From a virus (Duplodnaviria; Heunggongvirae; Uroviricota; Caudoviricetes): a DNA stretch of 13,810 nucleotides. Made by a program: the position numbers. How positions within the stretch are numbered: the stretch's first letter is position 1; each line of letters opens with the position of its first letter. Of this stretch, positions 3,001 through 6,000 are shown piece after piece. The DNA lies in IMG/VR virus record IMGVR_UViG_2695420521_000003. One strand, given 5' to 3'.

Positions 3001-6000
3001 TGACTGAGGAAAGGCTTTACCATCGGTTTCCGTTACCGATACGGCTTTCGGCTTTGCTGGTAAATTATCGTCCGGCATGCAGTAACGGAATTTACCGTTC
3101 TGATTTACGCGAATCAGACGCCCTTTGCTGATTGCCATTGCCAGCGTTGAAGCTACTTTGCGTGATGTGGTACCGAACAACGTAGCCAGTTCATCCGCCG
3201 TTTGTGGTCCGCGTTGTTCAATCGTCGCGGTTAAATCGCACTCTGAGATTTTCGCTACTGTTGCTGTGGTGGTTTCTTCCGGCAGCTCTGCCTGCGCTGG
3301 CTGTTCCTGCTGAACGTTGTTATCAGCCACACGCCAGGTGTACGCGCTTTTATCAACAAAACCAGCCTTTTTCAGTTCCCATAGTTCGTTAAGCACTTCT
3401 TCACGACTGACATCAAGTCGCGCCGCAAGTTCTATGGATGTGGCTTTTCCCATTGCTTTCAGTGCGTCAAAAACAGTCTCCATTAAATTTTTTTCCTGGT
3501 AAAAATTACTTTGTGATTCCTGGCTGGACGACATTCGGGTGCCAGCTTTCCCAGTTAAAACTCACCCAGCGTCCGCCGTTCATGGTCATGCGATCCATAA
3601 TCCGCTCACCGAGCAATGTTTTCATGGCCTCATAGTTCAGGTTTGTCAGCATTCCCACGCTACGCATCGACGCTGTCCGTCGATCAATAATCTGGTGCAG
3701 TACTATCTGCTCGTTTTTCGTCTCGCGCTGAATGCCAATTTCATCAAGAACCAGCAGATCCACTTCGCACAGTTCCCGCAATAATTTTTCGCCTGACTGC
3801 CCGTCGTCATAGCTGGCATGCAGGGCACTCATAACATCAGCCACGGTAACCACAATCACTGCCTGACCGTCTTTCAGCAGGCGATTTCCGATAGCTGCCG
3901 CTAAATGGTTCTTCCCGGTACCAGGTTTTCCGCTGAACGCAAAATTTGTACACCCGGTCATCAGTTCATCGGCGATGGATTTCGCCTGGCTTAACGCGTA
4001 TCGCTGGCCGTCGTTCTGCACCTGGTAATTTGCAAACGAGCATTTACGATACAACGGCTGGATGCCTGAGCGATTCAGAATTTTTTCCACCCGCAACTGA
4101 CGATTCAGGCGGTTGATCTCCTCGCTACGTTTTCGCCCTTCTGCAAGCTGCCACTCTCGCCACTCGTCCACTGTCCGGCACGGCGCGGTTACATGCTGCG
4201 GAGTCAGCTTACGGATACGTTCAAGAACACCGCCTGTCGCAATATTTTTCACAGTTCGTTACCCCCTAAACCCCGGCGGAATTTCGGTGTCTGGTTCAGA
4301 AATATGATTCACACAACGCTGTACAGGTGAACGCCCCAGGCGGATGACCAGTTCGTCCCATTTTTCGCGGAGCTTTGACGGGCTCATGATGTTTTTTACC
4401 CAGAATGGATCTCGCTGTACCCGCCCAAACATTTCGCAAATTTGTCTGTGAGTTCTGCCATCCAGCATCCGCATTGTGCGCACATCATTGGCCCATGCGG
4501 TCCAGTTTGGTTCTTTCGGTCGCGAGATCTCGCCATCATCGCTGGCAGCCTGCTCGTAAAGACTCACAATTCGTCCCCAGATCCACTGTGCGCACGCCAA
4601 ATCTTCCTGACTTCCCCACTGGCGTTTTTTCGCACTGAACACAACCGCGTCAGGGTGTCGGGTTAAAAAATCCTGTTCAGCCGTCTGCGGGTCCGGTTGC
4701 GAAGCTTCCGGACGAGAAGTGTTTTTATTCTCTGTAGTAATCTCTGTTGTATTCTCTGTAAGATCATCAGGCCATTTTGACCCGATGACATTGGGTCGTT
4801 TTGAACCAATGGAGCGTGCCATTTTGACCTCTTCCATCGTGTCATTTTGACCTGATGGAGCGGTGCATTTTGACCTGATGGATTCGCTCACTTTGCCACC
4901 ATCTAAAAGCTCACTCTCGTAATTAATCGTGTAAAAATTAGTCATATCACGCTTTGATTTGTTGAGCTTTTCACAACGCAAAAGCCCCAGCGTTTTCAGA
5001 CTTGCAAATGCGCGTTTTAACGTTGACTCTGACCAGAACGGGAACTGTTCCAGCCATTGTTCTGTTGTGTTATAAATCCAGCGAACACCATCACATTCCA
5101 TGCCGGAACCGGTATCTCTCAACCAGTAATGCAGCTGCTGCAACACGATGGCTTCGTTCAGACCAATTTTCATCGCCAGCTGCGTGTTTATAACCAGCGG
5201 GCGTTCAGCAAAAAGGAGCTTCATCCCCTCCCCCAGAACACGTTATCAATGCGCCACCACGGCATTTCCCGCCGGACCACCACGATTCATCTGATTGAAA
5301 CCAGCAATTACCACCGCGACAAGTTCATCAGCGTCTCTCACCAGTCGTTCATGCGTATCCACCAGTTCCCGAAAATAATCGGAACTGTGGCTGCGCATCC
5401 AGGCCACCAGCGGAGGTGGCATTGCCTTTTCGATCGCTGGTAACAAAGCCTGAATTTTTTTAACCGCATCAGGGGTGTCTTTCTCCACCCAGCGGAAAAT
5501 TTTCTGAGTATTGCGAGCCAGGGCTTCCGGATGGCTGTCGTCATACAGTTCCGGGAATGTCATACCCAGCTCAAAATAAGCCCGGGTTATTTCAGCTGCC
5601 GGAACTTTTTCACCGTCCGGACGCGCCCAGGCATTCATCGCCATGCGGATGTGTTCATGCTTGATTTTCATGAATCATTTGCCTCTTGATGCTTCGGGTA
5701 TGATCGTTTTTGTCATTTGGTTGCTTCATCGACATATTCTGCGAATAACATGACGAACGTCGTAAGTATGACCAGTCAACATCAGGACGAAGTTCTTCAC
5801 ACAGGACTCCACCTTTTGTTGCTCGTTCAATCGCTGGACATCTCTCGGCAGGCAACCGACGTACACCTTTGATCCATTGATTTACGCTTGGAGGCGATAC
5901 CCCTAAAAGTCTGGCCATTGCTGATTGCCCACCAACAACAGCACAAGCTCGTTTGAATGAATAGTTCTCTTTTTTCATCGAATGAACTCCAAAAAACACA

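Follow-up and report, generated by a model that had tools for sequence, protein, structure and literature searches.

In bacteriophage lambda, the initiator protein O binds to iterons and forms the O-some, two iterons in combination with the AT-rich tract suffice for unwinding, and O also binds AT-rich single strands; the Shiga toxin (Stx) phages 933W and P27 have six-iteron origins that are grouped with lambda ori (PMC7466680). Iterons of ~22 bp located inside the initiator coding sequence are known from the RepA_N (pLS32/pSK41 type) theta plasmids of Gram-positive bacteria, a class described as lacking a noticeable AT-rich region (PMC4758243). In the oriV of plasmid RK2, each of the four 13-mers is required and the Rep protein specifically binds one strand of the DNA unwinding element (DUE), as single strand; repeats similar to these 13-mers were noted for oriC and lambda (PMC10797057). 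Here we analyzed a stretch of 13,810 nucleotides (nt) from the IMG/VR virus record IMGVR_UViG_2695420521_000003, referred to below as the window, to which all positions refer. The window is part of an Escherichia coli lambdoid prophage; it matches its best genome with 98.4% identity over 98% of its length, at a site between tRNA-Ser/mtfA and the Nin/Q region. With a probability that we put at roughly 80%, positions 4691-4903 are the vegetative replication origin of this prophage, which has Rac-type immunity and sits at the tRNA-Ser beside mtfA, and this origin lies inside its own initiator gene.

The initiator gene is an open reading frame (ORF) of 321 amino acids (aa) on the minus strand (4259-5224) that belongs to PHROG 391 ('replication initiation O-like', E 1e-96). 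Using a repeat finder, five 23-nt units were detected at plus-strand positions 4765-4787, 4789-4811, 4812-4834, 4835-4857 and 4858-4880, with spacings of 24, 23, 23 and 23 nt and 65-100% identity to the reference copy. The original prediction, made from the sequence alone, had claimed five to six direct repeats at a regular ~23-bp spacing inside the initiator coding sequence, leaving the strand unstated, and our results bear this out. The sixth unit (4881-4903, GATGGTGGCAAAGTGAGCGAATC on the gene strand) is degenerate and in phase with the other five, and a better copy, GAGGTCAAAGTGA, is present at this position in two relatives (L082 and L083). The whole array of six in-phase units spans 4765-4903, of which 4765-4880 hold the five good ones. 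Four copies of the exact core CATTTTGACC are found, at 4773, 4820, 4843 and 4866. When up to one mismatch was allowed, the whole window contained six matches compared to 1.59 expected, a number reached in none of 200 shuffles; two of the six, both with a single mismatch, fall outside the array. The gene-strand consensus of the iteron, CATCrGGTCAAAATGrCmyGmTs, is a near-palindrome with the arms CATCAGGTCA and TGACCTGATG around a central AAA, which is the form of site expected for binding of a dimer. In the orientation of the gene, the order of elements is N-terminal domain (N-domain), iterons, 12-mers and C-terminal domain. A second AT-rich stretch at 4900-4960 (25-30% GC) is located on the N-domain side of the iterons and codes for the conserved N-domain segment KSKRDMTNFYTINYE; its composition is probably a codon effect and not an element of the origin.

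On the other side of the iterons lie three tandem 12-mers (4726-4761, minus strand), identified with the repeat finder and proposed to be the repeats of a DUE. They read TATTCTCTGTAG, TAATCTCTGTTG and TATTCTCTGTAA on the plus strand and TTACAGAGAATA, CAACAGAGATTA and CTACAGAGAATA on the gene strand. These are the TCTCTGT repeats which the original prediction had noted in an AT-rich tract. The tract is AT-rich (30% GC over 4720-4759), but this description proved insufficient, as a specific 12-mer is conserved far beyond the lambdoid phages. The 36 bp of the tract are within the least stable 2% of such segments overall and rank 11th out of 930 inside the gene. Because of its position, its periodicity of about one helical turn, its base composition and its strand asymmetry, we read the tract, by analogy, as a repeated unwinding element.

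A tblastn search with the N-domain yielded 152 phage records from Escherichia, Klebsiella, Erwinia, Pseudomonas, Vibrio, Staphylococcus, Bacillus, Listeria, Lactobacillus, Bacteroides and others, and a profile search with one genome per species added 80 further loci from Gamma-, Beta-, Delta- and Epsilonproteobacteria, Bacillota, Chloroflexota and Armatimonadota. In the set of homologous genes that was compared (L082-L090 and L096-L175), the layout of an N-terminal winged-helix domain followed by iterons and then 12-mers is kept across 90 genes from several bacterial phyla, including phages of E. coli, Klebsiella, Erwinia, Pseudomonas, Bacillus, Staphylococcus and Lactobacillus. The best self-similarity period of the iterons is 23 nt in 63 of 87 genes and 22-24 nt in 83 of 87, while their sequences vary (GGTCAAAATGACC, GGGCAAAATGCCC, GGACAAAATGTCC, TGCAAATTGCA and others). 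The 12-mer tract is more conserved than either the iterons or the protein: between two and five tandem copies of (A)CAGAGAnTAC follow the iterons in 87 of the 90 genes, and the tract lies at a fixed distance of ~20 nt after the last iteron core. The pattern CAGAGAnT[AT] occurs 9.6 times per kb within gene nt 300-560 and 0.018 times per kb elsewhere in the same loci, counted on both strands (a 521-fold difference).

The mosaic structure of related phages allowed us to follow how these elements are combined. In megablast comparisons, Klebsiella phages match only 4726-5167, i.e., the N-domain, the iterons and the 12-mers, and in another set of E. coli phages the match is confined to 4350-4726, i.e., the C-terminal half. 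The breakpoints of both sets coincide at ~4726, the distal edge of the 12-mer tract, which in these alignments separates a module of N-domain, iterons and 12-mers from a C-domain module. Phage vB_EcoM-720R4 has another N-domain (HTH_36 type), other repeats (CCGTCAAAATCTGAC) and no 12-mers, and the C-module common to both begins at the inverted repeat GTCCGG(11 nt)CCGGAC, a weak feature found at 4691-4713 at the start of the C-terminal module. YdaU of the Rac prophage represents a third initiator type, with its own repeats and upstream of the same type of loader. The family N-domain itself is joined to C-terminal regions that are lambda-O-like (15 of 89 genes), of the Phg_2220_C or DnaD-like type, or unclassified. 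Since the iterons change together with the N-domain in the mosaic relatives, they travel with this domain, as expected if it reads them, while the 12-mers stay the same. This fits the earlier claim that the iteron sequence defines the replicon specificity type.

The 12-mers were also searched for independently of the N-domain. Scanning IMG/VR for exact occurrences of two copies in tandem gave at least 120 loci, 115 of which had enough upstream sequence. Among the matches listed, 75 of these 115 loci have the N-domain type of the window, and 40 carry the 12-mers in frame in an ORF with other N-domains and quite different iteron-like repeats (for example L183:2307-3299, L179:2235-3503 and L244:3261-4040). 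When ten representative proteins of these latter ORFs were compared with Pfam, no model was found for the N-terminal domain; the C-terminal regions of such ORFs include lambda-O-like and Phg_2220_C regions, the DnaT DNA-binding domain and an HNH insertion.

The presumed iteron-binding part of the initiator is its N-terminal winged-helix domain (~aa 1-107), encoded at 4904-5224 on the minus strand. Residues 1-112 were modeled with AlphaFold2 on the basis of 70 homologues; the model has a predicted local distance difference test (pLDDT) score of 85 and a winged-helix topology (H-H-E-E-H-H-E-E). Its best fold matches in the PDB are the N-terminal domains of staphylococcal plasmid RepA proteins (4pql, 4pt7 and 5kbj, including a Rep-DNA complex), with marginal Foldseek scores (E 1e-3 to 1e-2, template modeling (TM) score 0.5-0.6, best E 1e-3 with TM 0.58, and 14-16% identity). 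In the viral model library, the domain matches many phage replication proteins. Its sequence shares 45-78% identity with that of homologues from Proteobacteria and Firmicutes phages; sequence searches in Pfam, NCBIfam and the PDB assigned it to no family, and Pfam RepA_N (PF06970) gave no match, with scattered sub-threshold matches to winged-helix models such as PadR, HTH_36 and MarR. The entire initiator protein has no Pfam family (E<=0.01) and no NCBIfam model, and its RefSeq label is 'hypothetical protein'. The C-terminal half, encoded at 4259-4725 (minus strand) as delimited by BLASTP and the mosaic breakpoints, is homologous to that of lambda O (aa 147-294 versus aa 135-270 of O, 34% identity, E 1e-27). 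BLASTP found no similarity between the first 110 residues and lambda O, and none of 70 family members matches Phage_rep_O (PF04492) even at E<=1, while lambda O as a positive control does so at E 6e-36. The term 'O-like' used in the original prediction is therefore correct for the C-terminal half and does not apply to the N-domain.

Residue 67, at the start of the predicted recognition helix, is the N-domain residue most associated with the iteron type: it is Ser in 40 of the 46 genes with xxTCA iterons and Asp in 24 of the 25 with xxGCA iterons. In the window, the Ser67 codon is located at 5024-5026, and the identity of the residue covaries with the half-site base that precedes CA in the iteron, T being paired with Ser and G with Asp.

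One alternative to an origin is that a repeated peptide in a flexible linker gives rise to the repeats as a side effect, the periodicity of the DNA having no role of its own. The array does code for a low-complexity stretch between the two domains, and the 12-mers are in frame (TENT/TEIT/TENK), a single frame being used in 78 of 87 clusters. However, the motif GGTCAAAATG is translated as RSKC, GQND, VKMA, SKRP and SKWP in the five units (codon phases 2, 1, 0, 2 and 2), and longer readings (IRSKCT, SGQNDT, EEVKMA, IGSKRP, IGSKWP) likewise use three phases, since a 23-nt period is not a multiple of three and the frame shifts at each unit. The free position n of the 12-mers is the second codon position (0.14 bit), where the residue varies freely among N, I, T and S, whereas the synonymous third position following it is T in 95% of the copies. 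Glutamate within the 12-mers is encoded by GAG 161 times and by GAA twice, compared to 628 GAG and 752 GAA in the remainder of the same genes, and 87% of the copies have A or T as the final base of the last codon; positions 2, 3, 5 and 7 of the 12-mer were fixed by the search pattern and provide no evidence. In nine clusters with copies 11 nt apart, two or three frames are used and the DNA of neighboring copies is read as RDY, IDY or QRI versus TET or PET (e.g., RDY versus TET), with all three frames occurring in L159. Closely related alleles point in the same direction. A whole-protein search of viral contigs gave near-identical alleles only, which served for the analysis of polymorphism and not for distant comparison; 80 such alleles comprised 32 distinct ungapped sequences. 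Variable third codon positions amount to 49% of the sites in the N-domain part and 57% in the C-terminal part, in contrast to 10/39 in the iterons (141/262 in the flanks, p=0.001), 1/12 in the 12-mers and 11/52 in the whole origin tract (gene nt 345-499; Fisher p=1.5e-5 against the same flanks). For first and second positions, the iterons tend, if anything, towards a slightly higher variability (15/77 versus 56/523). The suppression of third positions but not of the others shows that the coding signature is replaced by a constraint on the DNA itself, and alleles that are 8% diverged overall have zero differences over the 12-mers and the three iterons nearest to them. Selection acts on the repeats as DNA rather than as peptide; in view of the frames used, the codon positions and the polymorphism among alleles, the peptide explanation is rejected as extremely improbable. 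The original prediction had itself raised a coding-driven peptide repeat as its counter-explanation, and it withstands that challenge with the motif read in three frames and the 22-24-nt spacing of most homologues.

The iterons could also serve mainly for control (autoregulation, titration, handcuffing or exclusion of related phages), with replication starting elsewhere. Iterons of plasmids also act in copy-number control, ectopic copies of lambda ori are reported to inhibit phage growth, and our data concern the architecture of the region rather than the actual start site. However, apart from the single-mismatch matches, no other copy of the motif is present in the window, the array is always tied to the A/T-rich repeat tract at a fixed distance and orientation, and the order of elements is the one of lambda, where the origin is mapped, in keeping with the ori architecture expected in the original prediction; we consider a mainly regulatory array quite improbable. 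Alternatively, the origin might be the decayed relic of a defective prophage and no longer fire, given that many E. coli lambdoid prophages are cryptic and that the element of the nearest genome carries cargo, namely the paa adhesin gene and a fimbrial pseudogene. Yet the initiator and DnaC-like ORFs are full length, in agreement with the structurally intact replication module that had been claimed, and agreement with the family consensus is seen for all three 12-mers and for five of the six iterons. Moreover, the distal iterons and the 12-mers are identical to alleles on IMG/VR viral contigs, and the isolated phages PhiR42_1, HannyBb and mEp460_ev081 have the initiator gene at 92% identity, which makes a relic unlikely. 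A further explanation is that the 12-mer tract is conserved mainly as a joint for the recombinational exchange of N-modules (specificity) and C-modules (loader recruitment), its shared DNA identity being exchanged and homogenized between phages, and not as a functional element of the origin. The position of the mosaic breakpoints would agree with this, as would the fact that the tract links at least six N-domain types to at least five C-terminal kinds (lambda-O-like, Phg_2220_C, DnaB_2/DnaD-like, DnaT-like and some with no Pfam match). Exchange alone, however, would not maintain ~90% identity from Enterobacteria to Staphylococcus, Anoxybacillus, Chloroflexota and Campylobacterales, and the position of the tract, its copy number (2-5), its 12-nt phasing and its orientation to the iterons are all kept. 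That the tract is mainly such a joint appears doubtful to us, and the two roles, as joint and as part of an origin, are compatible with each other.

Several points weigh against the assignment of 4691-4903 as a replication origin. Our observations concern its anatomy and evolutionary constraint, from which we infer binding by the initiator, unwinding and origin firing. The covariation between residue 67 and the iterons is confounded by shared ancestry and is suggestive. The match to the RepA fold is marginal, and lambda O is absent from the best 50 viral fold matches of the N-domain. The 12-mer tract is only moderately unstable at its 30% GC and is not the minimum of the window. DnaA boxes (TTWTNCACA) occur only at 4245 and 8806 in the window, no more than expected by chance, and none lies in or next to the origin. 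The prophage may be defective, as its late genes are not seen in the window. Finally, the presence of 12-mers behind unrelated iterons and N-domains, at the 40 of 115 listed loci mentioned above, weakens the idea that they are read specifically by this N-domain family.

Based on the anatomy of the locus, the covariation and the predicted fold, we propose that dimers of the winged-helix N-domain would bind the five to six near-palindromic 23-bp iterons and form a complex similar to the O-some. By analogy, the stress imposed by this complex could open the adjacent A/T-rich tract of three 12-mers, which would act like the 13-mers of oriC or RK2 oriV, possibly because the initiator binds single-stranded DNA in a strand-specific manner. 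The lambda-O-like C-terminal half and the tail of the initiator would then recruit the neighboring DnaC-like loader with the host DnaB, and transcription from a pR-like promoter would cross the origin, as in lambda.

The initiator ends in a 19-aa tail (RCVNHISEPDTEIPPGFRG; ...SEPDTEIPPGFRG), encoded at 4262-4318 on the minus strand, of which 13 of 19 residues are identical to the C-terminus of YdaU (L177:2421-2477), a protein that is otherwise unrelated and precedes a loader of the same type. The tail also matches the C-terminus of DnaT weakly, and PHROGs 18526 and 3729 match the tail only. In E. coli, the dnaT gene precedes dnaC. The tail may be a peptide that couples the initiator to the loader. 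That the ...PPGFRG tail always occurs with a downstream DnaC-like gene was unsupported in the 80 genome loci: none of the 11 genes with the tail had a DnaC-like gene in the flanking sequence covered, and eight genes with a DnaC-like gene had no tail. In addition, an E. albertii copy of the same initiator is followed by a different gene. The tail shared by the YdaU/YdaV module would keep the idea of a tail-loader coupling alive for Rac-type modules only. The DnaC-like AAA+ helicase loader gene of the window (3506-4252, minus strand) lies directly downstream of the initiator gene; its product matches NF009043 over residues 1-248 of 248 (E 3e-149) as well as Pfam IstB_IS21 (PF01695)/Bac_DnaA.

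The deep conservation of the 12-mer is the unexpected part of these results and deserves follow-up. Repeats of DUEs normally differ between replicons, and the question arises why this one is kept from Enterobacteria to Staphylococcus, and what reads it. The occurrence of one 12-mer in such different hosts and with such different initiator types suggests that an unwinding model alone is insufficient and that there is a common reader, a joint for module exchange, or both. The reader of a single sequence that persists in this range of hosts would be a factor shared by all of them, with a conserved surface for single-stranded DNA on the winged-helix initiator superfamily or a universal component of the replisome as candidates. 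We tentatively suggest, at somewhat below even odds, that (A)CAGAGAnTAC is an undescribed sequence-specific core element of phage origins, conserved as nucleotides across phyla, common to several N-domain types, read by a shared factor and doubling as a module joint. As part of this reading, in phages of Proteobacteria, Bacillota, Chloroflexota and other phyla the element would always be located within the initiator gene, immediately 3' of the iterons. In open-access text, searches with the sequence strings, or with ACAGAGA together with iteron and phage, gave no description of the 12-mer, and general searches of the open-access literature returned lambda, Stx and plasmid origins only. The AT-rich tract of lambda (39119-39179; ACAAAAGACACTATTACAAAAGAAAAAAGAAAAGATTAT, encoding TKDTITKEKRKD) resembles ACAAAGACTAC, a 12-mer variant of some family members, and may be a diverged relative of the 12-mers with irregular spacing. 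In practical terms, the combination of 22-24-bp iterons followed by two to five copies of ACAGAGAnTAC inside a gene provides a signature for finding origins in uncharacterized temperate phages and prophages. Furthermore, a function is assigned to a gene annotated in RefSeq as hypothetical and lacking a Pfam model, and the replicon specificity, i.e., the iteron type, is defined for a prophage family that is widespread in E. coli and carries the paa adhesin gene.

The initiator gene belongs to a leftward series that also comprises the YdaS/Cro-like gene (5655-5999, minus strand) and, between the two, the YdaT/CII-like gene (5246-5671, minus strand); the DnaC-like gene is followed by a DUF1627 gene (2737-3534, minus strand). 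The RacR repressor gene (6103-6579; NCBIfam E 6e-73) is divergent. A pR-like sigma-70 promoter, TTGACA-18-TAATAT, was identified by its match to the consensus at 6006-6035 on the minus strand, upstream of the ydaS/ydaT/initiator operon, and transcription from there would cross the origin. A palindrome with 15-nt arms (ACAACAATATTAGGCG...) at 6000-6032 overlaps this promoter between the racR and ydaS-like genes, and the region 6000-6035 is probably the immunity operator. The integrase gene (11752-12777) abuts the tRNA-Ser (12830-12919). The window further contains, according to Rfam, a sok antitoxin RNA beside a hok-type ORF (778-927, minus strand) and a DicF small RNA (8440-8491, plus strand), as well as the paa gene (1119-1877, minus strand), which codes for an AcfC-family adhesin and sits between the replication module and the Nin region. 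No RNA family of Rfam was found in or near the origin.

Compared with lambda ori, the origin of the window likewise lies in the middle of the initiator gene and has dyad-symmetric iterons with an A-tract at the center that are read in several frames. The lambda iterons start at 39034, 39054, 39078 and 39101, and their spacing of 20-24 bp is comparable to that of the array described here. In both cases, the iterons are followed on their 3' side by an A/T-rich tract with a purine-rich coding strand, and then by a small inverted repeat; the palindrome to the right of the AT-rich tract in lambda has its positional counterpart in the inverted repeat at 4691-4713. The C-terminal halves of the two initiators are homologous, whereas the N-domain resembles lambda O neither by Phage_rep_O nor by BLASTP, the iteron cores are unrelated (GGTCAAAATGACC versus TCCCTCAAAACGAGGGA in lambda), the A/T-rich tract of the window is, unlike in lambda, a precise threefold 12-nt repeat, and the loader is a DnaC/IstB-type AAA+ protein and not lambda P. 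The RepA_N plasmids also have their iterons within the central part of the rep coding sequence and a variable C-terminal part, and their N-terminal winged-helix domains (4pql, 4pt7, 5kbj) are the best, albeit marginal, solved fold match of the N-domain. They differ in the absence of a Pfam RepA_N sequence match in the window and in their plasmid rather than phage context, and the window has, unlike them, a conserved A/T-rich tract of 12-mers after the iterons. Tracts of three to four tandem A/T-rich repeats of about one helical turn are typical of RK2 oriV (four 13-mers), F oriS and the 13-mers of oriC, and in the iteron plasmids RK2 and F, as in the window, the iteron array adjoins the repeated tract. 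However, such repeats differ between these replicons, while the 12-mer is common to several phyla and initiator types, and the origin of the window is devoid of DnaA boxes and lies inside a gene.

The Rac prophage of E. coli K-12 (racR-ydaS-ydaT-ydaU-ydaV), whose origin is named oriJ, shares with the window the RacR (E 6e-73), YdaS and YdaT families, a loader 92% identical to YdaV and the 19-aa tail of the initiator. Beyond this tail, YdaU (DUF1376) has no relationship to the initiator of the window, and it has four internal repeats of its own (AAGCAGATGTTCAA) and no 12-mers. Since an unrelated initiator with its own repeats is thus found beside the same loader, the initiator and its origin have been swapped as a cassette. 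The original prediction had proposed comparing the iterons with the oris of lambda, Rac and other lambdoid phages, and the iteron of the window is distinct from the repeats of lambda and Rac. Taken together, the chimeric initiator gene contains a probable origin of the lambda type, with a specificity that had not been characterized before.

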